IMG/VR virus record: IMGVR_UViG_3300040770_000334
Location: 1 to 46,016 of that record
Strand: one strand, 5' to 3'
DNA length: 46,016 nt
Origin: a virus
Shown: positions 11,006-45,169 of the stretch, in pieces
Position numbering within the stretch: the stretch's first letter is position 1
Layout of the letters: the number at the start of each line of letters is the position of its first letter
The notes under the pieces: model-generated
What the model saw: only the letters and a program-made list of their open reading frames with translations
Databases searched by the model: none
What the model was told of the DNA's origin: nothing
Made by a program: the position numbers and the translations under genes

Positions 11006-12685
11006 ATGGCAAATAGAATAACCACACACATTTTAAAAAATAGTGATGTAATTGCAAGACCGTTACCTTCGGTATTATTAAAAGGTGAACCAATTATTAA
11101 TACCGCTGAAGGTATTATGTTCTTCTCTGGTTCTACTAGCTCAACAGCTGGTTGGACACAAGCTGGTCCTAACCCTTCATTTTTTGAGGTAGGGTCTAAT
11201 CTTTATGATTTAAAAATTAGAAATAGAATAACAGCATACAATGGTTTAACTAACCTAACAGGTAAATTCCTTTCTGGTACAACTAGTGGGTTCGTTTTAG
11301 CCGATATAGCAAATATTGTTGGTGTTGATACATATGTTACTGGTGGTACTTACAACGCTGGTACAGCAACCTTCAGAAATAATTTCGGTGCATCATTTAA
11401 CGTTACTGGATTCAAAGAATCTGACTTGGTTGTAACTGGTGCTACTGGTAATGATAGTGTTAAAACTTATACCTTCACAAATAATACAGGTGGTACATTT
11501 ACTGTTAATGCATTATCTGATATTCGTGTAACTGGTGGTACTTTCTCAAACGGTACGGCTATTTTCACAAATAGTACTGGTGGTACGTTTAACGTTGCTG
11601 GTTTTAGTGATGTTCGTGTAACTGGTGGTACTGCTAATGATAGTGCTAAAACTTATACCTTCACAAATAATACAGGTGGTACTTTTAACGTTAACGCATT
11701 AAACGACATACGTGTAACTGGTGGTACTTACTCAAACGGTACAGCTATTTTCAGTAATAATACTGGTGGTACGTTTAACGTTACTGGTTTCAAAGAATCT
11801 GATACTGTAGTAACTGGGGCGACTGGTAATGATAGTGCTAAAACTTATACGTTCACCAACAATACTGGTGGTACTTTCAGTGTTAACGCATTATCCGACA
11901 TACGTGTAACTGGTGGTACTTTCTCAAATGGTACAGCATCGTTTACAAATAGTACTGGTGGTACGTTTAACGTTGGTGGTTTTGCTACTGGTACATCAAG
12001 TAGTGATACTTATGTTAGTGGTTTTACATACACCCCAACACAAAATAAATTTACAATAGCGCAAAACGGAATAGCTAATCTAGATGTAACGCTTTCAGCT
12101 GTATCTGGTTTAACTGTATCTGATTTAGCAACAAATAGACTTGTTTATACAACAACTGGTGGTAAACTATTAACTGGTACCGCAGTTTTTGATGGAACTA
12201 ATACTAACTTACCATCGAATGGTTCGTTAACTGTTGGTAGTGGTGGTTTAATCATTGGTAGTGGTGGTTCACCAAGTGTTGCTGGAACTGGAGACCTTAT
12301 TGTTAATGGTAACATAACAGTATTTGGTAATGCCTTCTCAGCATTTACATCTCAATTATATGTTGAGGATAACAACATTTCACTTAACTTTAACCCTACT
12401 GGAAGTACTGTCGCAACATCTGTTGGTGCTGGTTGGACTATCCAAGATGGTAATGGTGTTAGTACTGGTGACGTTAACTTCGATATTAGAGCAATGAACG
12501 TATTTAGTGGGCTAACTGGTACACAAATACCGAATGTTAGTGAATATGGTGGGGCAACTGGATACGCAAATAGAGGTTTTGTTACACAACTAAACGATAT
12601 CGTTATTCGAAGCACAAATATCAACACACCAAATGGTGTTAGGTTATTGGCCGAATTTGATGTTTTAGATGGTGGGGTTTACTAA
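11006..12685 (+). CDS. Tail-fibre-like protein with tandem VTGG/FTNNTGGTF repeats
   Basis: N-terminal LLKGEPIINTAEG (Mtd_N/hyaluronidase-N-like), seven tandem repeats, ends in LDGGVY; late motif at 10982. Confidence 0.7.
   Translation: MANRITTHILKNSDVIARPLPSVLLKGEPIINTAEGIMFFSGSTSSTAGWTQAGPNPSFFEVGSNLYDLKIRNRITAYNGLTNLTGKFLSGTTSGFVLADIANIVGVDTYVTGGTYNAGTATFRNNFGASFNVTGFKESDLVVTGATGNDSVKTYTFTNNTGGTFTVNALSDIRVTGGTFSNGTAIFTNSTGGTFNVAGFSDVRVTGGTANDSAKTYTFTNNTGGTFNVNALNDIRVTGGTYSNGTAIFSNNTGGTFNVTGFKESDTVVTGATGNDSAKTYTFTNNTGGTFSVNALSDIRVTGGTFSNGTASFTNSTGGTFNVGGFATGTSSSDTYVSGFTYTPTQNKFTIAQNGIANLDVTLSAVSGLTVSDLATNRLVYTTTGGKLLTGTAVFDGTNTNLPSNGSLTVGSGGLIIGSGGSPSVAGTGDLIVNGNITVFGNAFSAFTSQLYVEDNNISLNFNPTGSTVATSVGAGWTIQDGNGVSTGDVNFDIRAMNVFSGLTGTQIPNVSEYGGATGYANRGFVTQLNDIVIRSTNINTPNGVRLLAEFDVLDGGVY
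11327..11985 (+). repeat. Seven tandem ~90-100 bp in-frame repeats alternating two subtypes
   Basis: Type A DIRVTGGTFSNGTAIFTNSTGGTFNVAGF alternates with type B DxVVTGATGNDSxKTYTFTNNTGGTFxVNAL. Confidence 0.9.
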
Positions 12686-12700
12686 TTAAAATATTTAATA

Positions 12701-12741
12701 AAAAAAAAAAGAGATAACACATGTTATCTCTTTTTTTTTTT
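12701..12741 (+). terminator. Intrinsic terminator
   Basis: Poly-A, gagataac-acat-gttatctc, poly-T. Confidence 0.9.
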
Positions 12742-12769
12742 ATTAAAGTAAATAAACTTTATTTTACGC

Positions 12770-12844
12770 ATATTTATATTATACTGGTTAAATAACCAAT
12801 AGAATAAACTCTAGATAGAGTATTAATTAAAACCATAGATATGG
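12770..12844 (+). promoter_or_regulatory. Late motif followed by a 5' leader with three U-ARAU-A hairpins
   Basis: ATATTTAT at 12770; tggtt-AAAT-aacca, actct-AGAT-agagt and ccat-AGAT-atgg (contains the start codon). Confidence 0.65.
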
Positions 12845-15800
12845 CAAATAGAAAAAATACGTTTTTAATAAAACGTTCAAACGTTCCTGGTAATAAACCT
12901 ACAGCTGGTCAGATTTTACTGGGTGAATTAGCCCTTAACACAGCTGATGTTATTTTATATACTTCTGGAACAACAGCAAATTCTATATTGCCAATTGGTT
13001 GGGATAGGGTGAGCAAGACTGGTGATACCATGACTGGGCCTCTTTACTCACCAACAATATCAGCAACAACATACCTTAATTTACCAATAACAGCTGACAT
13101 ACGTGTAACTGGTGGTACGCATTCAAATGGTACTGCCACGTTTACAAATAATACTGGTGGTACGTTTAACGTTACTGGATTTAGTACTGGTGGTGGAAGT
13201 AGTACTATTTTAACTGGTGGTACGTTTAATAATGGTGTTGCAGTATACACTAATAACTCTGGTGGTACTTTTAATGTAACTGGGTTTACGTCATCGAACA
13301 TTCCAGTTAAATCAGAACTTGGTTCATCATTCTCTAAACTTCAAGATTTTATTGATGTTGGTTGGTCTGCTGGTAGGATTTCTGGTGGTGAATTGGTTAA
13401 TAATGGAAATGGTACTGTTAACATACTATTAGGTTCTGGTATGATTAAAACAACCGATAATATTCTTGGAAACACAAATTTCTTTAGTTGGAACACGCAG
13501 AATAACATATCATTAGTAAATGAACAAACATCTTACCTTTATGTCGATTATAATGGTGGATTACCTTTAATTACAGCAACAACGGATTCACTGAGCGTTA
13601 CACAAACAACACAGTTTATTTTAGCATCTGTTTATAGGAAAAACAACGATATCTATACGGCACAAACTGGTACAGAGATATCTAACTTACCTAGAAAAAT
13701 ACAACGACGATTAACTGAAGCTTTTGGTTATCAGAGAACATCTGGTATCATAACAAGTGAAACTGGTACATTAGGTTTTAAGGTGTCTACTGGTATTATA
13801 TGGTCATCCTTAAATAGAAACATATTCCCACCATTCTCAACTATTTCTGGTGGTACATTTACATTATTTACTAGAAATGGAGTTGGTGGGTTCAATGAAT
13901 TAGCAAGTCAAACTACGTTAGACCCTAACATATACGATAATGACGGAACCACACCACAATTAACAAACGGTAGGTATTCTTCTTATTTCGTATATGTTGG
14001 AACAGGTGGTAAGGTAGACGTATTAATGGGTCAAACAAATACAACCTTATCATTAACCCAGAGTAGTGTTGTTCCAGCTAACCTACCAAAGGTAATGAAT
14101 GATTTTAGTTTATTTGCGGCTAAAATAATTATATTAAAAGGTGCAAATACTTTTACTGAGGTGCAATTACCGTATGGTACACTTGTATCTCAAGGCTCTA
14201 CTAATAACCATAATGAATTATCGTCTCTTCAAGGTGGTAGTGTTGGGGAATACTATCACTTAACATCAAATGATTATAATACAGTGTTGGGTGTTAACAC
14301 ATCATTACAACAAAAAGCTAATCTAACTGGTGCAACGTTTACTGGTGGTGTATCAGCTACAACAATTTCAGCAACAACATACCTTAATTTACCAATAACA
14401 GCTGACATACGTGTAACTGGTGGTACACATTCAAATGGTACAGCAACCTTTACAAATAATACTGGTGGTACATTTAATGTTACTGGTTTTAGTACTGGTG
14501 GTGGTGGAAGTAGTACATTCACAGGTGGTACGGTTAGTGGTGCAACGCAGTTCACTGGTGGCCTAACAGCTAATACTATTTCAGCAACAACATATTTAAA
14601 TTTACCAATAACAACAGATATTAGAGTAACTGGTGGAACTTATTCAAACGGTACAACGTTATTCACAAATAATACTGGTGGTACATTTAATATTACTGGT
14701 TTTACCACAAATACTTATGGCGATTTAAGACAAAAAAATACCGTAACTACAACGGGAACATCACAAACACTCTTAGGTATAATAACTGGGATTACTATTG
14801 GTACATATATTATTGAGTCATACGTTACTGCAAATAAATCAAATAATGAGTATGGTGTTTGGAAAAGAACATTAGGCGTAACTACTAGTGGTGGTACTCC
14901 TGTTATTGTTCATGAAAACGCTGATTTAGATAAAGTATCTTCTGGATTTACTGGAAACACTATAGTATATAGTGCAATTACTGGAAATGCAATTAATATT
15001 TATGTTACAGGTATTTCAGCAAACACATATAACTGGGCATCATATTATAATATTATTGACCAAGGAATTGCTGCTAATAATATATTAACATTATCAACAA
15101 ATATTTCTGCATCAACAATAGTTGTTGGTGCTATAACAGCCACTAATTATTTAGGTTTACCAACAGATATTAGAGTAACTGGTGGAACACATTCAAATGG
15201 TACAGCCACATTTACAAATAATACTGGTGGCACGTTTAATGTTACTGGTTTTAGTACTGGTGGTACTGGTAGTGTGTCACCGATAACAATTGTTAACACA
15301 TCAAGCTTATTCTCAACAGGTTTAGCTAATACTGGGAATGGCTCAATAGGAGTTGATTCACTTTTCTTTGGTAGAAGTGCTGGTAATGGAGCAACAAATG
15401 CTAGTAACTCTAACTTTTTTGGTTTTAGTGCTGGTCAAAATGCTATAAATGCTAACAATTCAAATTTCATTGGAGCTCAAGCTGGACAAGAAGCAACAAA
15501 CGCTACTTATTCAAATTTTATCGGATTCCAAGTAGGTAGTGCGACAAGTGCTCAATTCTCAAACTTCTTTGGTTTTCAAACTGGTAATCAAGCAACAAAT
15601 GCCAGTAATTCAAATTTCTTTGGTCAAAATGCTGGATTTCAAGCAACAACTGCTAATGATTCAAATTTCTTTGGTTATTATGCTGGTAATGGGGCTACGG
15701 GTGCTTCTTTTTCAAATTTCATTGGTCAGAGTGCTGGTGACTCAGCATCAAGTGCGACTGGTTCAAATTTTATCGGTCATAATGCTGGGCAATTTTCAAT

Positions 15801-16287
15801 AGGTGCTTCACAATCAAATTTTATAGGTTACCAAGCTGGTGTTCTTGCAACAAATGCAAGTGGTTCAACCTTTATTGGTTCCCAAGCTGGTAGAAGCGCA
15901 ACAGGTGCTTCTTACTCAACCTTAATTGGTTTTAATGTCGGTAACGGTGCAAACTTAAAAAGTATTGGGTCAAATAATATAATTATTGGTACTAACATAT
16001 CATTGGTTAGTGGTAAAACAAATAGTATTAATTTAGGTGGTGTTTTATTTGGGACTGGGGTCTATTCAACAATAACGGGTAATCCAAGTATTACACCACA
16101 AACCCAAGGTAAAATAGGCGTTAACATTATTGACCCAATCCAAGCATTTGAGGTATCGGGTGGAACAAGGTTATATGGTGGTTTAACCGCAACAACAATA
16201 TCGGCAACAACATACCTTAATTTACCATCTACTGGTGGTGGTCTATCTTTTGGTCAATTATACGCAATAACAACATTAAACATATAA
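12841..16287 (+). CDS. Long modular tail fibre
   Basis: N-terminal LLGELALNTAD; dispersed TISATTYLNLP/DIRVTGG repeats; ~14-aa SNFFGxxAG solenoid-like repeats near the C-terminus. Confidence 0.75.
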   Translation: MANRKNTFLIKRSNVPGNKPTAGQILLGELALNTADVILYTSGTTANSILPIGWDRVSKTGDTMTGPLYSPTISATTYLNLPITADIRVTGGTHSNGTATFTNNTGGTFNVTGFSTGGGSSTILTGGTFNNGVAVYTNNSGGTFNVTGFTSSNIPVKSELGSSFSKLQDFIDVGWSAGRISGGELVNNGNGTVNILLGSGMIKTTDNILGNTNFFSWNTQNNISLVNEQTSYLYVDYNGGLPLITATTDSLSVTQTTQFILASVYRKNNDIYTAQTGTEISNLPRKIQRRLTEAFGYQRTSGIITSETGTLGFKVSTGIIWSSLNRNIFPPFSTISGGTFTLFTRNGVGGFNELASQTTLDPNIYDNDGTTPQLTNGRYSSYFVYVGTGGKVDVLMGQTNTTLSLTQSSVVPANLPKVMNDFSLFAAKIIILKGANTFTEVQLPYGTLVSQGSTNNHNELSSLQGGSVGEYYHLTSNDYNTVLGVNTSLQQKANLTGATFTGGVSATTISATTYLNLPITADIRVTGGTHSNGTATFTNNTGGTFNVTGFSTGGGGSSTFTGGTVSGATQFTGGLTANTISATTYLNLPITTDIRVTGGTYSNGTTLFTNNTGGTFNITGFTTNTYGDLRQKNTVTTTGTSQTLLGIITGITIGTYIIESYVTANKSNNEYGVWKRTLGVTTSGGTPVIVHENADLDKVSSGFTGNTIVYSAITGNAINIYVTGISANTYNWASYYNIIDQGIAANNILTLSTNISASTIVVGAITATNYLGLPTDIRVTGGTHSNGTATFTNNTGGTFNVTGFSTGGTGSVSPITIVNTSSLFSTGLANTGNGSIGVDSLFFGRSAGNGATNASNSNFFGFSAGQNAINANNSNFIGAQAGQEATNATYSNFIGFQVGSATSAQFSNFFGFQTGNQATNASNSNFFGQNAGFQATTANDSNFFGYYAGNGATGASFSNFIGQSAGDSASSATGSNFIGHNAGQFSIGASQSNFIGYQAGVLATNASGSTFIGSQAGRSATGASYSTLIGFNVGNGANLKSIGSNNIIIGTNISLVSGKTNSINLGGVLFGTGVYSTITGNPSITPQTQGKIGVNIIDPIQAFEVSGGTRLYGGLTATTISATTYLNLPSTGGGLSFGQLYAITTLNI

Positions 16288-16290
16288 ATT

Positions 16291-17508
16291 ATGATTTTTT
16301 TAAACACAACAAATGAATCTTTAGAGATTAAAACTACATCTATCGCTGATATTGATTTCCAAGTAAATTTTGTAGATGTAGTTCCATCTACTTCAGCAAC
16401 TCCTGGTAGTTTCCAAGGAAAAATTACAACTATTGGTATAACCGTGATATTATCGGCACCAGCAGCATCAGTTTCAAGACAAATTAAATCGGTCTTTATT
16501 AGAAACAAACATGCATCTTTAGCAAATACAATTTCAGTTAATAAAGATGTATCGACAATTGAATATTTATTAACTAGTGATACGCTTTTACAGGCTGGGA
16601 CATTTATGGTGTATGAAAGTGGAAATGGTTGGAGCCTTGGTTCTACATTAGTTAACACACTTAATAACGACTACCATACTGGATATCAAGACTGGCTAGG
16701 TATTTCCGACCCAGTATCTCCAGCAATTGGTGATTTAAGGGTTTACGCAAAACCAGTTGTTGGTAGAATGTTACCAAAATGGAAGGGCCCATCTGGGCTT
16801 GACACACCATTTCAACCAGCTTTTTTTGGTAATAATATTGTTATGTGGAATCCAGCGGCAACCTCTGGTGTTATGATTGGCGCACTACAGACAGTTATAA
16901 CTGCTGGTGTTTCAACACTTCCAACAGTAACAAATCGATACACTAGTTTACGTAGAAGTGTGTTTACCTCAGCAACTGGTGTTAACACAATGAATAGTCT
17001 TAGAAGCGAAGCTACTTTTTTTAGAGGCGCAACAGTTGGTGCTGGTGGTTTCTTTTTCTTTTGTAGGTTTGGTTTTACAACTTGGACCCAAGGAAATAGG
17101 TTGTTTATAGGTTTGGCCGTTGATACTACCGCTTTAATAACGGCTGACCCATCATCTAAACTTAACACTCTTGGTTTTGCGGTTGATTCAGCAGATACCG
17201 CAATTAGCTTTATACATAATGATGGTACTAGTGTCGCAATTAAAGACGTTATTGTCGGACAACCAGCCTTATCTAGTAATAATGCTTATGATGCGTATAT
17301 ATTCTGTAAACCAAATGATACGACAGTATTCTACAGACTTGATGACGTATCATCTGGTTTAACAATTATTGACACATCAACAGCTATTGACTTACCAATT
17401 TCAACAACTATGCTTAACGCAACAGCGGCAATAGGTTCTGGTACTAACGCTGGTGCTGGTGTAGCCGCTATAGGTGTTAACAGAATGTACATTGAATCGG
17501 ATTACTAA
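16291..17508 (+). CDS. Putative virion appendage / fibre-tip protein
   Basis: Beta-rich, T/S/G-rich; 3 nt after the fibre stop; no clear family motif. Confidence 0.45.
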   Translation: MIFLNTTNESLEIKTTSIADIDFQVNFVDVVPSTSATPGSFQGKITTIGITVILSAPAASVSRQIKSVFIRNKHASLANTISVNKDVSTIEYLLTSDTLLQAGTFMVYESGNGWSLGSTLVNTLNNDYHTGYQDWLGISDPVSPAIGDLRVYAKPVVGRMLPKWKGPSGLDTPFQPAFFGNNIVMWNPAATSGVMIGALQTVITAGVSTLPTVTNRYTSLRRSVFTSATGVNTMNSLRSEATFFRGATVGAGGFFFFCRFGFTTWTQGNRLFIGLAVDTTALITADPSSKLNTLGFAVDSADTAISFIHNDGTSVAIKDVIVGQPALSSNNAYDAYIFCKPNDTTVFYRLDDVSSGLTIIDTSTAIDLPISTTMLNATAAIGSGTNAGAGVAAIGVNRMYIESDY

Positions 17509-17547
17509 TAATCCAAAAATAATTAAAAATAAATATAATATATTATA

Positions 17548-17799
17548 ATGGCAACAAGTAATTTAAAAAGAGTAACTATTGGTTCAATAGAGTTACAAAG
17601 TGGTAATGGTTCGCCAAGCCATTTTTCAGCAATTGGTAGTACATATATAAATGTAGATACTGGAATTAAATATAAAAATAATGGTGGTATAAATTGGGGT
17701 TTAGAAGCTAGTGGTTCTGGTAGTGCAATTACTGTTTCATTATTACCACCAACAGGAATACCATCTAATGGTGACCAGTGGGTCACGTATAGCGGATAA
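17548..17799 (+). CDS. Small fibre adaptor-like protein
   Basis: GNGSP...GSTYINVDTG and PPT..PSNGDQW motifs typical of fibre modules. Confidence 0.5.
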   Translation: MATSNLKRVTIGSIELQSGNGSPSHFSAIGSTYINVDTGIKYKNNGGINWGLEASGSGSAITVSLLPPTGIPSNGDQWVTYSG

Positions 17800-17802
17800 T
17801 TT

Positions 17803-20427
17803 ATGGCAAATAATAGTAATGGTTACATAGGAGTTAATGGTGGTTGGAGTGGAATAACAAGTAGGTCTATTGGTGTTGATAACCAATGGAAGGACCAGAC
17901 ATTTCAATATGTTGGTGATAATGGGTATTGGCGATTAACATATACTAAAAACCCAATAGATTTAGGTGGTAACTTTTTTGTCCGATACCTAGAAGGTTAT
18001 GAAGTAGTAACGGGTAACTCATTAACGATATACGGAAGTAATTTAGTTGGAAATCAAGTTATGTTCCCAGCAGATGGTGGTTATTTTGAATTGACTGCTA
18101 ATCTTAGTGATTTATATGGAAATTTTGCTGGTGGTACGTTAGTTGGGACACCAAGTATTGGTCAATTATTTGGTGGTCAACCAGCTCTGGGTATAACAAC
18201 AAATAATGATTATTTCAACTTACCTAGTGATTTAGATGCAATTGGTATTTTTGGTAATGATGGTAATAAAAATTACAATTTAGGTTCTTATTTCTATTTA
18301 AACACTTTACCTAGTGGGTCAACAGTTACCCCTGTTTTATCTTATGGTAACGCAGCTAATGGTATGGAAGTAGTGGTAACATCTGGTGGGAATTTACAAC
18401 AAAAAATATATACTGGTAGTTCACCTTTATTAATTGACTCTGGGAGTGGAAAAATAAAGGTAGGGTGGAATTCATTTTTAATTAATAGAACAACTGGTAC
18501 AACAAAAATGTATTTATCTGGAACAACAACAGCTGTAACAACATCATCATTAGTTACAATAACCCCATCTCTTAATAATTTAGTTAGAGTTGGTGCTTCA
18601 TTTACTAGTGGGTCAACAACGCCTATATCACCAGCTATGTCAACTACTAGGACAGCACCAGCGTATGCACTTAGTAACAATAATTTAACCATAACATCTA
18701 GTGATGTAAACTATTATACATCAAGAAGTAATATGGTTATATCACGTAATACTGGTAAATACTATATCGAAGTATTTATTAATGCTGTTGGTTCTGGATG
18801 GCAATGGTTAGGTCTTGGTAGTACATCTGATTCGGTGACTAATGGTAATGGTGTTGGTTTATTAACTTGGAGTATAACAAGTAGTTCTAGAACTTTTAAT
18901 AAAGATAACGGTGTTGTATGGGGTGGTGGTGCAAATACATTCACTACTGGTGATATTGTAGGTTGTATTTACGATTCAAATGCTGGGTCATTAACATGGT
19001 ATAGAAACAATGTTTTATTAGGTACTAGCACAACTGCTGTTATTGGCGATACGGAATTTATCTTTTCATCAGATACTGGTGGGTCCGACACAATGAGATT
19101 TACTTCTGGTAGTTGGACATACGCACCACCTGTTGCTGGCGCAATCGCTTTTCCACCAGCAACAGTTATTGTTGCTGGTACTGTTTACTCAACTATCGGT
19201 ACTGGGTATAAATACGTTTATTGGAAATTACAAGCGTTAACACCGATTAACCTTTCAAAATATTTAAATAGGGGTAACACTAAAATTATCTTTAAAAACA
19301 AAACAACTTTAGCTGAATCAATTGTACCAAGTAATTGGTTATTAAATAGTACTAATGAATATATCTCTTTTACTGTACCACCAAACGTTACCGAAGGTAT
19401 TTATGATGTATTACTTAGATACTCAGATATCGAGGAATCATATGGTCTTCCAGTTACCGTTAATAAACCAGTAATTGCAACCACGGAATTCATTGACGAT
19501 TTTAGTGATGAAACAACACTTAAAAATAACTATCTTTTCTCAAACACTGCTTGGGGTGGTGCCAACGGTGGTGTTGTACCAGATAATGTGTTTTTAAGAG
19601 ATGGTGTTTTAATATTAAAAGGTAATGGTGATAATTATACTGGAACAACTCAAGGTGTTGATGGTAATGGAGTTAAAAAATTCCATACTAACCCTTCAGA
19701 CCCACAATTTGGTTTACCATGGACAAATAGGGTTGGTGGGGTTATATCGTATAATAAACTGACTGGGTATGGTAGTTATGAGGTAAACGCATTGATACCT
19801 AATGTATTAGGCGTGTCTTATGCTTTTTGGACATTTTTCTATAACGAAATATATCTTGATGACCCAAGGTATAATGAGTATCTAGCTGAAGGTTTGTCAC
19901 CACAAGGTGTTAGTAATTATATTGCTCGTAACCATGAAATAGATATAGAATTCCCGTCACATTTAACTGGTGGAACTTATAATAACCCAAGCCTTAATAA
20001 TATGAAATGTAATACTTGGATAGGTGAATTATCTGCTGAAAATACTATTGCGTTAACACCTGTAGGTTTTAATATTGCTGATGGTAATTATCATAAAATT
20101 AGGTTTGATTGGTACCCAACACGTGTTGACTACTATGTTGACGATGTTTTAAAAAATAGTGTCACTAAAACGATACCAAATATAGCTGGTTATTTTACTT
20201 TTGGGTCATGGTTCCCATCATCACCTTTAACAGCTAAACCTTGGTTGGCTGACCCAGAAAATGCATGGGCTGGTGGAACGGTAACAGCTGATGGTGGTAT
20301 GAAAGCTAATTTTGGTTCCGTTGAGCTTAAAGTTAAGGGGTTTAAATTTACACCATTTAGTGGTTTCACAGCACAACAGAGAGTATTAGGTGTTACATAC
20401 CCATTTGGAGACTACATAAAACCATAA
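17803..20427 (+). CDS. Multidomain virion appendage: LamG-like + SPRY + glycoside hydrolase family 16
   Basis: SPRY: GKYYIEV...FTTGDIVGCIYDSNAGSLTWYRN. GH16: GYGSYEV, AFWTF, catalytic EIDIE (19936-19950), YHKIRFDWYPTRVDYYVDD. Confidence 0.8.
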   Translation: MANNSNGYIGVNGGWSGITSRSIGVDNQWKDQTFQYVGDNGYWRLTYTKNPIDLGGNFFVRYLEGYEVVTGNSLTIYGSNLVGNQVMFPADGGYFELTANLSDLYGNFAGGTLVGTPSIGQLFGGQPALGITTNNDYFNLPSDLDAIGIFGNDGNKNYNLGSYFYLNTLPSGSTVTPVLSYGNAANGMEVVVTSGGNLQQKIYTGSSPLLIDSGSGKIKVGWNSFLINRTTGTTKMYLSGTTTAVTTSSLVTITPSLNNLVRVGASFTSGSTTPISPAMSTTRTAPAYALSNNNLTITSSDVNYYTSRSNMVISRNTGKYYIEVFINAVGSGWQWLGLGSTSDSVTNGNGVGLLTWSITSSSRTFNKDNGVVWGGGANTFTTGDIVGCIYDSNAGSLTWYRNNVLLGTSTTAVIGDTEFIFSSDTGGSDTMRFTSGSWTYAPPVAGAIAFPPATVIVAGTVYSTIGTGYKYVYWKLQALTPINLSKYLNRGNTKIIFKNKTTLAESIVPSNWLLNSTNEYISFTVPPNVTEGIYDVLLRYSDIEESYGLPVTVNKPVIATTEFIDDFSDETTLKNNYLFSNTAWGGANGGVVPDNVFLRDGVLILKGNGDNYTGTTQGVDGNGVKKFHTNPSDPQFGLPWTNRVGGVISYNKLTGYGSYEVNALIPNVLGVSYAFWTFFYNEIYLDDPRYNEYLAEGLSPQGVSNYIARNHEIDIEFPSHLTGGTYNNPSLNNMKCNTWIGELSAENTIALTPVGFNIADGNYHKIRFDWYPTRVDYYVDDVLKNSVTKTIPNIAGYFTFGSWFPSSPLTAKPWLADPENAWAGGTVTADGGMKANFGSVELKVKGFKFTPFSGFTAQQRVLGVTYPFGDYIKP

Positions 20428-20451
20428 TAAACAATTTAAAACAAAAACAAA

Positions 20452-20928
20452 ATGTTCGGAAGTAAAAACGATTTTTTCTTACAAGATTCAGCTAGGTTGG
20501 CCGATAGAAGGGACCAACTAATTTTCTTATTAAATAATATTTGGGGTAGAAACTATCTAGTTACAAAACTTTACTTAGAAGCATATGATTTCTTCTGTGC
20601 TGAACCAAGTGAATTTGATGGCGCAACAATAGTTAAGGATTTAAAGAGTATACCTAACCTTGATATTCATGCGATGCTTCACGATTACTTATATGTGAAA
20701 TACAATGTTTCGGTTAATGTTAAATATAAATGGTACGCTGATTTAATTTACGCTAAAGAAATGGAGCGTATGGGTTCAGCGGCTTACTCAACATGGAGCC
20801 GATTCATAGGGTTAACATTGTTTGGTGGATTATTTTTTACACCAATAATGTATTTTTCTGGTAAACGAATGTCACCAGAACAGAAAACCGAAATGTCGAA
20901 AATGGTAGTATTTTTTAATATTAATTAA
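20452..20928 (+). CDS. DUF1353-like protein with C-terminal hydrophobic segment
   Basis: FDGATI...AMLHDYLY...ADLIYAKEM pattern. Confidence 0.6.
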   Translation: MFGSKNDFFLQDSARLADRRDQLIFLLNNIWGRNYLVTKLYLEAYDFFCAEPSEFDGATIVKDLKSIPNLDIHAMLHDYLYVKYNVSVNVKYKWYADLIYAKEMERMGSAAYSTWSRFIGLTLFGGLFFTPIMYFSGKRMSPEQKTEMSKMVVFFNIN

Positions 20929-21077
20929 TCTTCACCATAAATACCTTTTTTAGGTACACATTTATCATTTATCAGTTTTTCAACAAATGAAAACATCTTT
21001 AACCCATTTTCTTCACAGTATTTTTTGAGGATAAGATGGGTTTTTGTCGTTATTTTTAAGTTTTTATCTCGTACCAT
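20925..21077 (-). CDS. 50-aa ribbon-helix-helix-like DNA-binding protein (not in the ORF track)
   Basis: Manual translation: MVRDKNLKITTKTHLILKKYCEENGLKMFSFVEKLINDKCVPKKGIYGED. Confidence 0.7.
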   Translation of the reverse strand: MVRDKNLKITTKTHLILKKYCEENGLKMFSFVEKLINDKCVPKKGIYGED

Positions 21078-21172
21078 ATAAGTATTTAACTATAAGTATG
21101 ATAGAAGTAGGTCAAAAAACATACTAAATCAAATTTATCTTTTGGTAAGTACTTACTTTTGGAAAAAACCTA

Positions 21173-21180
21173 ATATTTAT
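21173..21180 (+). promoter_or_regulatory. Putative late promoter motif ATATTTAT
   Basis: Recurrent motif upstream of the sheath gene. Confidence 0.6.
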
Positions 21181-21230
21181 AATAAAGAAAACGATAAAAG
21201 TAAATAATAACATTAACAAAAAAAAATAAT

Positions 21231-24047
21231 ATGTCACAAAAAGTATTCGTTAGTCCTGGGGTTTATACGTCAGAAAAAGACTTAACATTTGTTACTCGTC
21301 AAGTAGGGGTAACAACACTTGGTTTGGTAGGTGAGACAACAATCGGTCCAGCGTTCCAACCAATATTCATAAGTAATTATGGTGAGTTTCAGTCATTCTT
21401 CGGTGGGTTAAACAACACATTAGTAAAAGACACGGGAAGTCCACTATATGAATTACCTTATGTTGCTAAATCATATCTATCACAATCAAATCAATTATTC
21501 GTAACTAGAGTATTAGGTTTGTCTGGATACGATGCTGGTATGGCTTGGGGTATCACACTTGATGCCGCAATGAATGAAGCTTCAGTTGTAGAAGTAAGTG
21601 GTGGTGGTGATTTCCCAGCATTAATTAGTTATTCAGCTAACACTGCTGGTATTGTAACAAACCTTACATCTAGTAGTTCATTAATACAATCACTTATTGA
21701 TTCTGGTGAATTTACTTCATCTCTTGCATTTTTAGGTAACGCACCTTTAGCTTCTGGTGGACCAATAACTGCAAAATATAATAAAGTGAATGGTACATTT
21801 TTAGGTGCATCGATGAACTTAACTGTTACATCAAGAACAGTTAATAATGGTGGTGATATTGTTGGTGTTGCCTCTGGTAATACAACACATTTTTATGGTC
21901 AAGCTTTTGGTGACGTAGAAAATAAGTTAGTTGCTTTAATTCGTTCAAGAGGTAGTGTTAACCAAGTAAGTCAATTAACTTCGTTTGAGGTTGATACTAT
22001 TGATGGGTTAACTTTTGATGAATCAATTACTGATTCAATTAACAATCCATTAGGTAATTTTTCATTGAAAGGTACTTCAAGTCTTCAAGGAACATTTGAT
22101 TATAGTGTGTCTTTAGATAGAACAAAGAAAAACTACTTACCTAAAGTATTAGGTAGAACAGCTCAAGATGGTAGAGCAGCAATATTTGTTGAGGAGTTAT
22201 ACGGTAATATGTTTAAAGATGCTGTTTCTTCTAACAAAATAAGAGGTATTAAACAAACTATGGTTAATTATAACTCTGAGTTTTCAGATTATTTAAACCA
22301 ATTTAGTGCAGCTGTAACACCTTATATTGTATCTGAATTACGTGGTAACAAAATATTAAGATTGTTTAGATTCCATACCATTTCTGATGGTAATGCAGCG
22401 AACGAACAATTTAAAATATCTATTGTTAACATTAAACCAGATGCTAGAGAATTTGATATCCAAGTAAGAGCTTTTTATGATACTGACAACCAACCAGTTG
22501 TTTTAGAATCTTTTAGCCGTTGTACGATGGACCCATCTTCAGCTAATTATATTGGAAGAAGAATTGGGACAACTGATGGTACTTACGGTTCTAAATCAAC
22601 GTTTGTTTTAGTTGAGTGTGATGATGCTAGTGATACTAGTGATGCGTTTCCAGCTGGATTTACTGGTTACCCAGTTAGAGATTACCAAGCTAATGATAAC
22701 GATACTGTTCTTGCACCATCATTGATGTACAAACAATCATATAGTCCTTTTGAAAACAAACGTAAGATTTATTTAGGTGTTTCTCAAGCTGTAGGTATCG
22801 ATGCCGATTTCTTTGACTACAAAGGTGTTCCATTAAGTGCTAACCCAAACATGTGGACTGGTCTAACAAATGGTTTCCACATGGATATTGATGCTGGTAG
22901 TGTTACTATAGAAAATGGTGATAGATATAATCCAATTTATAAATTTGATGCTGGTGTTGGTGAGTTTAGAACTGATGCTGATTTATTTAACGGTCCTTAT
23001 GAAAAAGTTTACGCACGTAAATTTACGTTAGTACCTTTTGGTGGTTTCGATGGATGGGATGTTTATAACTCTAGAAGAACAAACACTGATAAATTTATTA
23101 TAAATGGTACTGGTGGTTCAGCTGGGTTGTTATCTGGTAGATTCACGAATAGAGTTTTATCTAACGGTGACTTGGGTATTAACTCTGATTACTATGCTTA
23201 TTTAGAAGCTATTTGGACATTTAAAAACCCAGAGGCGGTGAATGTGAATGTGTTTGCAACACCTGGAATTGATAACTTCGAAAACACTAACTTAGTTGAG
23301 GCAGCAATCGAAATGGTTGAACAAGATAGAGCCGATTCATTATATATTATAACAACACCAGATACAGCTAATGGCGAAATCTTAAGTGTTGGTGATGTGG
23401 TTGACCAATTAGATGGTCAAATTGATTCAAACTATTCTTGTACATACTGGCCTTGGGTACAAATTAATGATGTTGAAAATAATGTATTCATTTATGTACC
23501 ACCAACAAGAGATGTTGTTAGAAACATTGCGTTGACAGATAATATTGCTTTCCCTTGGTTTGCAGTTGCTGGTATTCAAAGAGGGGATGTTGATGCAGTT
23601 AAAGCTAGAAAGAAACTTACACTTGCTGAAAGAGATGAATTATATGAAAATAGAATAAATCCTATCGCTACGTTCACAACTGATGGAGTTAAAATCTGGG
23701 GTAATAAAACGCTTCAAGTTAAAGAAACAGCTCTTAATAGAATTAGTGTTAGAAGACTTCTTATTCAAGCAAGAAAACTTATTTCTGCTGTATCTATCAG
23801 ACTATTGTTTGAACAAAATGATTCAGTTGTTAGAAGTCAATTCTTATCACTTGTTAACCCTATCTTGGATAACATTAGAAGCGAACGTGGTTTAACTGAC
23901 TTCCGTGTTGTTCTTTCGAGTAACCCAGAAGATATAGATAGAAATCAATTAACTGGTCAAATATTCTTGAAACCGACAAGAAGCTTAGAATTTATTCAAG
24001 TTGAGTTCGTAATCATGAACACTGGTGCATCATTTGATAATATCTAA
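21231..24047 (+). CDS. Contractile tail sheath protein (gp18-like)
   Basis: SPGVYTSEKD, PWFAVAGIQRG, LYENRINPI, WGNKT and RISVRRLL motifs. Confidence 0.96.
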   Translation: MSQKVFVSPGVYTSEKDLTFVTRQVGVTTLGLVGETTIGPAFQPIFISNYGEFQSFFGGLNNTLVKDTGSPLYELPYVAKSYLSQSNQLFVTRVLGLSGYDAGMAWGITLDAAMNEASVVEVSGGGDFPALISYSANTAGIVTNLTSSSSLIQSLIDSGEFTSSLAFLGNAPLASGGPITAKYNKVNGTFLGASMNLTVTSRTVNNGGDIVGVASGNTTHFYGQAFGDVENKLVALIRSRGSVNQVSQLTSFEVDTIDGLTFDESITDSINNPLGNFSLKGTSSLQGTFDYSVSLDRTKKNYLPKVLGRTAQDGRAAIFVEELYGNMFKDAVSSNKIRGIKQTMVNYNSEFSDYLNQFSAAVTPYIVSELRGNKILRLFRFHTISDGNAANEQFKISIVNIKPDAREFDIQVRAFYDTDNQPVVLESFSRCTMDPSSANYIGRRIGTTDGTYGSKSTFVLVECDDASDTSDAFPAGFTGYPVRDYQANDNDTVLAPSLMYKQSYSPFENKRKIYLGVSQAVGIDADFFDYKGVPLSANPNMWTGLTNGFHMDIDAGSVTIENGDRYNPIYKFDAGVGEFRTDADLFNGPYEKVYARKFTLVPFGGFDGWDVYNSRRTNTDKFIINGTGGSAGLLSGRFTNRVLSNGDLGINSDYYAYLEAIWTFKNPEAVNVNVFATPGIDNFENTNLVEAAIEMVEQDRADSLYIITTPDTANGEILSVGDVVDQLDGQIDSNYSCTYWPWVQINDVENNVFIYVPPTRDVVRNIALTDNIAFPWFAVAGIQRGDVDAVKARKKLTLAERDELYENRINPIATFTTDGVKIWGNKTLQVKETALNRISVRRLLIQARKLISAVSIRLLFEQNDSVVRSQFLSLVNPILDNIRSERGLTDFRVVLSSNPEDIDRNQLTGQIFLKPTRSLEFIQVEFVIMNTGASFDNI

Positions 24048-24065
24048 TTTTAAGGATAAATAAAT

Positions 24066-24099
24066 AAAAAACCCTAACTTAGTCAGTTAGGGTTTTTTT
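24066..24099 (+). terminator. Intrinsic terminator
   Basis: aaccctaact-tagtc-agttagggtt followed by a T run. Confidence 0.9.
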
Positions 24100-24122
24100 A
24101 TATATTTATATTAAAAGAAACA

Positions 24123-24566
24123 ATGTCAAAACTAAAAATAACTAAAGAACAATATAACGCAATTTTGTTACATGAACAAACGACACGTTTAAACGCTAAT
24201 AGAGCAACTATAATCGAATCGACAACACATAGACCAGAATTATTAAATGAAGCTTGGAAAGACGTTGTTTTAGGTGTTGCTATGCTATGTGGTGTTAACC
24301 TTACTGGCCAGAATAAAGAAATTGCCGATAATGCGGTTAAAGACCCAACTATCATGGCCGAAATAAAGGCCACGTTAGAAGATGAAGTAAAAATAAGTGA
24401 ATTAATTGATTCATTGCTTGAGAAAGGAATGAAAGCCCCAGACAAAATGTTATCAGTTAATCCAGAGAGCATGGTATATGATTTTAATAAAACAGCAAAA
24501 TCTAATAGTATTGATACAACTATTGGTATCAAAGCCGCACTTAATTTAAATTCTATCGCAAAATAA
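24123..24566 (+). CDS. Hypothetical late protein, candidate head-packaged protein
   Basis: Own ATATTTAT at 24102; KLKITKEQY leader; hydrophobic segment after LLNE. Confidence 0.55.
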   Translation: MSKLKITKEQYNAILLHEQTTRLNANRATIIESTTHRPELLNEAWKDVVLGVAMLCGVNLTGQNKEIADNAVKDPTIMAEIKATLEDEVKISELIDSLLEKGMKAPDKMLSVNPESMVYDFNKTAKSNSIDTTIGIKAALNLNSIAK

Positions 24567-44254: not shown

Positions 44255-45169
44255 ATGAGTACCGAAAAGAAAGAAATGACACAATTAGAGAGAATGATGG
44301 CCCAGTACGAGGACAACAACAAACCACGATTTGCTAAGGCTGAAACAGCAAAAACTTATGATTTAAAAAATTATTTTAACACTTACATTGCCGAAGGTCT
44401 TACTACGGCAAACAAAGAGGTTAGGATTTTACCTAACCCAGATGGAACACCAATTTCTCAGATTCGTGCACACAAAGCACAAGTTGATGGTGCTTATAAA
44501 ACATTTGCATGTTTAAAACATGAAAACAATGAAGCTTGCCCTTTCTGTGAGGCATACGATGAGTTGACAGCAACTAAAGACCCTAAAGACAAAGAATTGG
44601 CGAAACCATTTAACTCAAAGTTAATGTACATCGCTAAAGTTATCGATAGAGATAATGAGGATGAGGGTGTTAAGTTTTGGAGATTTAATCATGACTATCG
44701 TAAAGAGGGTATTTTTGATAAGATTCACGGTGTTCTTAACAGTGTGAAAAAAAACAAAGATATTTTTGACCCAGAAACTGGTCGTGATTTAGTAATTACA
44801 ATAAATAGAAACGCACAATCAAAAGCATGTGTTGTAACAACTATCGTTCCTTTAGATTCTGACGTATTGTCAACTGATGATACACTTAAAGCTGAATGGC
44901 TTGCAGATACTAGAACATGGAGAGATGTTTATGCTATTAAAAGCTACGACTACTTATTATTAGTTGTTAATGGTCATACACCAATATGGAACAAAGACCT
45001 TGGTAAATTTGTTGCTAAAAACGGTGAAACTGAGGAAGGTGATTCTTCTGAAGAAGAAGTTACTATGGGGCTTGAAACTGTTAAGTCTGGTATAGAGATT
45101 GCTAAGACTGCTGACAAAACTGCTGGTAAAAAAACAGCTGAAGCGGAAACAGATGATTTACCTTTCTAA
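44255..45169 (+). CDS. Single-stranded DNA-binding protein (T4 gp32-like)
   Basis: VRILP, H..C..CPFC zinc site, GVKFWRF, DIFDPETGRDL and acidic tail DDLPF. Confidence 0.88.
   Translation: MSTEKKEMTQLERMMAQYEDNNKPRFAKAETAKTYDLKNYFNTYIAEGLTTANKEVRILPNPDGTPISQIRAHKAQVDGAYKTFACLKHENNEACPFCEAYDELTATKDPKDKELAKPFNSKLMYIAKVIDRDNEDEGVKFWRFNHDYRKEGIFDKIHGVLNSVKKNKDIFDPETGRDLVITINRNAQSKACVVTTIVPLDSDVLSTDDTLKAEWLADTRTWRDVYAIKSYDYLLLVVNGHTPIWNKDLGKFVAKNGETEEGDSSEEEVTMGLETVKSGIEIAKTADKTAGKKTAEAETDDLPF

Follow-up and report, generated by a model that had tools for sequence, protein, structure and literature searches.

In the T-even phages, recombination between conserved motifs of gp37/gp38 (His boxes and glycine-rich motifs) can exchange segments that determine specificity or duplicate them (Tetart et al. 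1996, 1998, cited in Trojet et al. 2011, PMC3157838), and recombination at conserved fibre and adhesin motifs is already the textbook explanation of T-even fibre plasticity. Ongoing domain shuffling of receptor-binding proteins has also been documented across phages (Smug et al. 2023, PMC10684548). Here, we analysed a tail fibre gene, referred to as fibre C (12841–16287, + strand), in a 46,016-nucleotide (nt) stretch of viral DNA, hereafter the window, which represents the first 46 kilobases (kb) of the 119.7-kb IMG/VR virus record IMGVR_UViG_3300040770_000334 (the full record is designated G000). The fibre C protein is built from unrelated blocks separated by a recurring linker of about 60 amino acids (aa), J-R, composed of a junction motif (J, TISATTYLNLP) and a 29-aa unit (R), and our results indicate that these structural linkers are probably also the places where crossovers usually fall in the evolutionary shuffling of fibre modules.

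The locus resembles the T-even system in several respects: it belongs to a T4-type myovirus with UvsX/gp32, short conserved motifs lie between variable specificity segments, relatives are chimeras with junctions at the motifs, duplication of small domains is possible, and there is no dedicated recombinase. In contrast to gp37/gp38, the linker here is an unrelated J-R sequence without a Pfam, PHROG or NCBIfam model, the units exchanged are whole domains of 110–340 aa and not loops, several tip-type domains stand in series in one polypeptide, and the evidence for exchange comes from sequence comparison. As in the mosaicism of receptor-binding proteins (PMC10684548), a conserved N-terminal anchor carries exchangeable distal domains, and fragments are common to otherwise unrelated fibres, whereas one linker recurring at nearly every junction, the occurrence of linker-only modules and a regular "beads on a string" grammar set this locus apart from general mosaicism. 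The Mu Gin, P1 Cin and p15B Min shufflons and the BPP-1 Mtd retroelement likewise vary the end of a fibre while its N-terminal part stays constant, and some relatives of fibre C carry an Mtd_N-type N-terminus; unlike those systems, the 119.7-kb fragment showed no invertase, inverted copies, reverse transcriptase or template/variable repeat pair. The locus works as the T-even principle does, with a different, unmodelled linker and whole-domain units, and no new mechanism emerges from it.

Fibre C encodes a protein of 1148 aa (P0001; other P numbers denote homologous proteins), and repeat search together with translation bore out the earlier note in that a repeat occurs at the places it had listed and brackets three unrelated blocks. 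J is present in five copies, starting at 13054, 14362, 14578 and 16195/16198 and, as a degenerate ITATNYLGLP copy, at 15133. R units, DIRVTGGT(H/Y)SNGTATFTNNTGGTFNVTGF, start at 13096, 14404, 14617 and 15166, each behind a J copy. A fifth, diverged R (TILTGGTFNNGVAVYTNNSGGTFNVTGF, 13204–13287, 59% aa identity to R1) was absent from the earlier list, and the partial copy described at 16195 turned out to be J alone, without R. The five J and five R copies bracket the blocks U1, U2 and U3 (about 13288–14325, 14710–15075 and 15253–16155), which have no detectable mutual similarity and differ in their homologue sets, and all repeat offsets keep the reading frame.

Read along the + strand, the gene opens with an N-terminal anchor (12841–13050, aa 1–70), a conserved virion-attachment part that is 74–83% identical to the syntenic fibres of three related loci (L016, L018 and L020). 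Linker 1 (13054–13182; J1 13054–13086, R1 13096–13182) and the diverged R unit are followed by U1 (aa 150–495), a body of about 340 aa that ends in HN.L..LQGG....YYHL, and then by linker 2 (14362–14490; J2 14362–14394, R2 14404–14490) and linker 3 (14578–14703; J3 14578–14610, R3 14617–14703). U2 (aa ~624–745) comes next, followed by linker 4 (15133–15252; degenerate J4 15133–15162, R4 15166–15252) and U3 (aa 805–1105), in which a 51-nt periodicity reveals about 11 tandem 17-aa repeats (SNF.G..AG..A..A.) ahead of a conserved end piece. The last element (16198–16287) consists of J5 (ISATTYLNLP, 16198–16227), a 19-aa C-terminal tail and the stop codon. Judged by where it sits and by its pattern of beta-strands, the J-R linker would be a structural shaft or connector element.

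A word-indexed search with fibre C, in which no more than 8000 candidates were scored, gave at least 1444 homologues at E ≤ 0.001, none of which, among the matches listed, was collinear over the whole query; the homologue statistics below rest on the best 120 of these. The first 70 residues are shared by 18 of the 120, at 74–83% identity, the same level as for the flanking core genes. J was counted 376 times in the 120 sequences versus 0 in shuffled sequences, with at least two copies in 74 of them, and half of the J copies have an R unit within 25 residues downstream. The gene order of L016, L018 and L020 is that of the window (PolB, gp13-like, glutaredoxin, SNF2, three small genes, fibre B, fibre C, further genes and the sheath), with flanking proteins 55–88% identical to those of the window, and their fibre loci are therefore orthologous to it. 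Their fibre C proteins (1856, 1979 and 1698 aa) nevertheless align with P0001 only in the anchor and one U3-type module.

When 11 proteins sharing the N-terminus were cut at every J and the pieces clustered, 45 of the 56 pieces fell into 8 families that recur in varied orders and numbers. In the codes of this clustering (B, linker only; D, linker plus U1; A, linker plus U3), the order is C-D-B-u-A-tail in P0001, C-F-B-H-B-D in P0031, E-F-H-B-B-D-B-u in P0027, C-F-A-B-u-A-A in P0011, C-E-A-B-A-u in P0004, C-E-A-A in P0019 and C-A-G in P0025. The relatives are chimeras with junctions at J, resolved at the level of modules and not of nucleotides. The comparison of orthologous fibres that the earlier note had proposed thus came out in its favour: cassette content and order are not fixed, and the boundaries coincide with the linker.

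The nature of the blocks was examined separately. The fibre locus sits between the PolB/gp13-like/SNF2 genes and the tail sheath gene, and relatives of fibre C carry Peptidase_S74, Mtd_N and YadA_head domains; together with the matches of U1 and the fold of U2 given below, these features identify the gene as encoding a virion tail fibre or adhesin. Neither P0001 nor its segments matched a Pfam family (hmmscan, E up to 5) or a PHROGs or NCBIfam model. The fibre C protein had no match among PDB sequences with phmmer, and the gene had none among 50,697 phage records with blastn. Similarity between the P0001 N-terminus and that of P0022, an Mtd_N-bearing relative, was not significant.

U1 has 12 aligned homologues with 25–37% identity, in which the HN.L..LQGG....YYHL motif runs into the next J, and the proteins P0031, P0067, P0076, P0115 and P0120 end with U1. 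With tblastn U1 matched annotated tail fibre proteins, and a feature search of the ESM Atlas returned unnamed viral clusters only. An AlphaFold2 model of aa 60–515 (linker plus U1, 13-row alignment) reached a predicted local distance difference test (pLDDT) score of 41, and no fold was claimed from it. U3 is homologous to the C-terminal half of the gene at 1–807 (54–59% aa identity), occurs in 96 of the 120 best homologues, frequently several times per protein, and matches gp257 of Sphingomonas phage PAU; the U3 copy of one relative weakly touches the YadA_head Pfam model.

Searched by itself against 1.8 billion representatives, U2 had 100 homologues. Of 90 matches that were full-length, 77 have U2 ending no more than 6 residues from the protein C-terminus, as a tip domain would, whereas P0001 and P0124 have it in an internal position between R units, with 391 residues following it in P0001. 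The AlphaFold2 model of U2 (70-row alignment, pLDDT 86) is an eight-stranded beta-sandwich, and its best structural match was the C-terminal domain of T4 gp9 (1qex, residues 160–288; Z 11.0 over 116 residues, rmsd (root-mean-square deviation) 3.8), followed by the C-terminal domains of the Klebsiella phage Kp9 fibre gp42 (7xy1, Z 9.9), the KP1 baseplate protein (9f4a, Z 9.7) and Acinetobacter tailspikes (6e1r and 6c72, Z 9.0 and 7.9). The model thus predicts for U2 the beta-sandwich fold of the gp9 and tailspike C-terminal domains. Relative to gp9 and the tailspikes (1qex, 7xy1, 6e1r, 6c72), 102–117 residues align at Z 7.9–11.0; unlike them, U2 is internal in fibre C, and the sequence identity is 5–14%. 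In BFVD, the matches of U2 include many uncultured-phage fibres with Mtd_N, collagen or YadA-like parts. The overall picture of fibre C is one of a single anchor that carries three distal fibre modules in series; the protein is presumably trimeric, and the U1, U2 and U3 bodies may bind receptors.

The same repeat had been reported in two other genes, and we recovered it in both and in a fourth. Fibre A (1–807, + strand, its 5′ part cut by the window edge) carries one R unit, a U3-type module and a different C-terminal tail. In fibre B (11006–12685, + strand, 559 aa), R units alternate with another unit of 31 aa (VTGATGNDSAKTYTFTNNTGGTF.VNAL); the orthologues of fibre B align with it collinearly (46–50% identity) but range in length from 480 to 623 aa, and therefore the copy number of the array varies among relatives. 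The fourth fibre gene lies outside the window (G000 69716–71902) and has 8 R units (two neighbouring ones, at 70178 and 70274, being 98% identical in DNA), after which come 14-aa SHAEG repeats in series. Fibres B (11006–11170) and C (12841–13008) have paralogous N-termini (MANR..., LL.GE..NTA...SG; 38% identity over 56 aa, E 2e-8), which suggests that both fibres dock to the same kind of baseplate site.

At the DNA level, positions 13060–13118 and 14368–14426 are identical over 59 nt, synonymous sites included, exactly as the earlier note had claimed. Of the 48 residues that agree between linkers 1 and 2, 39 are encoded by the same codon, against about 22 expected from genome or fibre codon usage, and 0 of 20,000 simulations reached either 39 same codons or a 59-nt run; the identity appears to go beyond protein constraint. 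Codon usage gives too low a baseline for a Gly/Thr/Asn-rich repeat, and an empirical baseline was used as well: the same-codon fraction of R units is 0.60 between phages, compared with 0.81 (39/48) for linkers 1 and 2. Within the A/B/C gene cluster, the fraction for R units is 0.74, while comparing this cluster with the distant fourth gene gives 0.60, at the between-phage baseline. The protein sequence of R4 equals that of R1 and R2, and 20–22 of 30 codons agree. The Tyr-Leu codons TAC-CTT are common to 3 of 4 J copies, a combination present in 0 of 19 J copies of relatives. Given the same-codon excess and the shared TAC-CTT, some copies are of recent common DNA ancestry, by duplication or conversion. 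Copies other than linkers 1 and 2 differ at 7–25% of their bases, the long identical tract being confined to one repeat pair, and the run as a patch is suggestive but not decisive.

Close variants of the locus were also available. The 90% cluster of P0001 holds short frameshifted fragments from other samples, and four contigs (L021–L024) from three other samples are 92–98% identical to the window; they are indel-rich consensus sequences, two of them near-duplicates. These contigs are collinear with the window over 11790–17451 and 13270–24474. Differences common to at least two of them are densest in the R arrays (fibre B, 11800–12000; start of fibre C, 13000–13400), and may stem from conversion among repeats or from alignment noise; since the contigs are indel-rich and include two near-duplicates, this excess was not interpreted.

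As for recombination machinery, the window encodes a gp32-like single-stranded DNA-binding protein (44255–45169, + strand; PF08804, E 7.9e-18) and a RecA/UvsX-like recombinase (from 45261, + strand, ending beyond the window at G000 46373; PF00154, E 3.3e-8), both above the Pfam cut-off, in agreement with the earlier proposal that phage UvsX and a single-stranded DNA-binding protein could act on the repeats. That proposal dispensed with an invertase and a reverse transcriptase, and the 119.7-kb record, about 34% of a genome, indeed contains no Resolvase and no RVT_1 match. All 21 of 21 repeat DNA matches in this record lie on the + strand, as direct copies inside expressed fibre genes, and no dedicated recombinase, inverted repeat copies or silent cassette store was found on it. 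A diversity-generating retroelement was accordingly rejected, there being no RVT_1 match on the record and the repeat differences being ordinary synonymous changes; an invertase shufflon was rejected for the missing Resolvase match and the uniform strand of the repeat matches.

We propose the following course of events. The conserved anchor (aa 1–70) would fix the fibre to the virion, and the remainder would be a chain of modules, each opening with the J-R linker of about 60 aa and optionally continuing with a body (U1, the tip-type sandwich U2 or the rod of 17-aa repeats U3). J-R appears to be the sole sequence common to otherwise unrelated modules, in the source genome and in related phages, and general homologous recombination, by UvsX/gp32-type machinery of the phage or by that of the host, would for this reason tend to cross over in J-R, so that whole modules would be deleted, duplicated or exchanged with the frame kept. 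Over evolutionary time, the outcome would be a fibre family with one anchor and many module orders. The earlier idea of repeats serving both as linker and as crossover site stands as regards in-frame linkers that bound autonomous modules and orders cut at J, while crossovers inside J-R, as opposed to merely near it, are what we infer from this arrangement.

Several observations weigh against this account. AlphaFold2 gave J-R a pLDDT below 40, and its fold was not modelled. Bodies shared with syntenic relatives are only 25–60% identical, and breakpoints could for that reason be placed at module level only. With the 10 differing codons fixed, the identical 19-codon run has a permutation P of 0.04 and is weakly unusual, and a recent duplication accounts for the 59-nt tract about as well as gene conversion does. 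Moreover, among the four consensus contigs from three samples, there was no deletion, duplication or swap. One could hold that the repeats are purely structural, J-R being the N-terminal shaft piece of each module, with rare fusions or illegitimate joins behind the chimeras, protein constraint and one recent intragenic duplication behind the similarity of the copies, and no crossover role at all. The fourth fibre gene, whose R units relate to those of A/B/C at the between-phage synonymous baseline, the 7–25% divergence of most copy pairs, the marginally unusual 59-nt run and the collinear close contigs would all fit. On the other hand, J marks where modules meet in 11 orthologues, and the same modules recur there in many orders, which is hard to achieve repeatedly in frame without homology; R units of the A/B/C cluster have the higher same-codon fraction (0.74 vs 0.60); and the TAC-CTT common to three J copies flanked by old, unrelated modules argues for exchange at the DNA level. 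We consider the purely structural explanation unlikely, and crossover at the J-R linkers probable.

The evidence on rate bears on stronger versions of the idea. It could be that the linkers keep recombination going in phage populations, both inside each of the four fibre genes and from one to another, giving in-frame variants through UvsX/gp32 only and keeping linker DNA similar in the process, which we regard as very unlikely. Still more doubtful is frequent UvsX-mediated exchange among the repeats in each infection cycle, with a standing mix of fibre variants, like a shufflon without its invertase. The perfect 59-nt tract between copies 1 and 2, the in-frame offsets, the UvsX-like and gp32-like genes and the extreme variability of the fibre locus among relatives would agree with such a generator, but the consensus contigs from other samples follow the window through the entire gene, a long identical tract exists in just one repeat pair, and the record lacks RVT_1 and resolvase genes, a dedicated recombinase, inverted copies and silent cassettes, all repeat matches being direct ones in expressed genes. 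A dedicated or high-frequency shuffling system is therefore not supported by the collinear contigs, the divergence and direct orientation of the copies and the missing reverse transcriptase and invertase, and the earlier note's term "shuffling system" is not borne out, there being no sign of a distinct system that acts at appreciable frequency. Finally, a metagenome assembly of a gene with dispersed repeats, identical over as many as 59 bases, might have joined several fibre genes chimerically into one long open reading frame. The independent contigs L021–L024 are collinear, which rules out a chimeric assembly, and orthologues of 1650–1980 aa with like architecture occur in many assemblies, so that an artefact is hardly credible.

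The surroundings of fibre C differ among the syntenic loci. In L016 (9087–9863) and L020 (9089–9859), a GIY-YIG/NUMOD3 homing-endonuclease gene stands between fibres B and C, where the window has a 155-nt spacer (12686–12840); such an endonuclease beside the fibre anchor could promote recombination in the region. The genes that separate fibre C from the sheath all differ as well (window 16291–20928, L016 15605–19024, L018 15970–20958, L020 15099–20780). This interval holds a 405-aa protein, an 874-aa SPRY and GH16-like protein and a 158-aa protein in the window, three Gly_rich_2 genes in L016, two unrelated large genes in L018, and three Laminin_G_3 genes with a YadA-like fibre in L020. Judged from gene content, the stretch from fibre C to the sheath appears to be a hypervariable host-recognition island.

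The record as a whole has a CheckV completeness of about 34% and is therefore a fragment of a jumbo phage. Gene order in the window is T4-like, with a family B DNA polymerase (PolB), a gp13-like neck protein, an SNF2 helicase, several fibre genes in succession and the tail sheath, and the identity of the sheath protein does not exceed about 35% with those of cyanophage, Bacillus phage SP-15 and T4-type phages. By these comparisons, the source appears to be a distant T4-like jumbo phage with no close isolated relative.

The locus exemplifies an unannotated and very common fibre grammar, an anchor followed by repeated units of J-R linker and body. More than 1400 metagenomic proteins match the fibre in one capped search, and there is no database model for it; a definition of this grammar would therefore help in annotating receptor-binding modules of large environmental phages and in delimiting them. 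The locus also shows a normally terminal tip domain, U2, captured inside a longer fibre. If population-level recombination were true, the lineage would continually yield fibre variants by in-frame deletion, duplication and swap, and the array would be a recombinase-free generator of diversity. Beyond that, fibre C illustrates cleanly, in nature and in a phage other than the enterobacterial T-even ones, how conserved linkers mark the points at which shuffled fibre domains meet.

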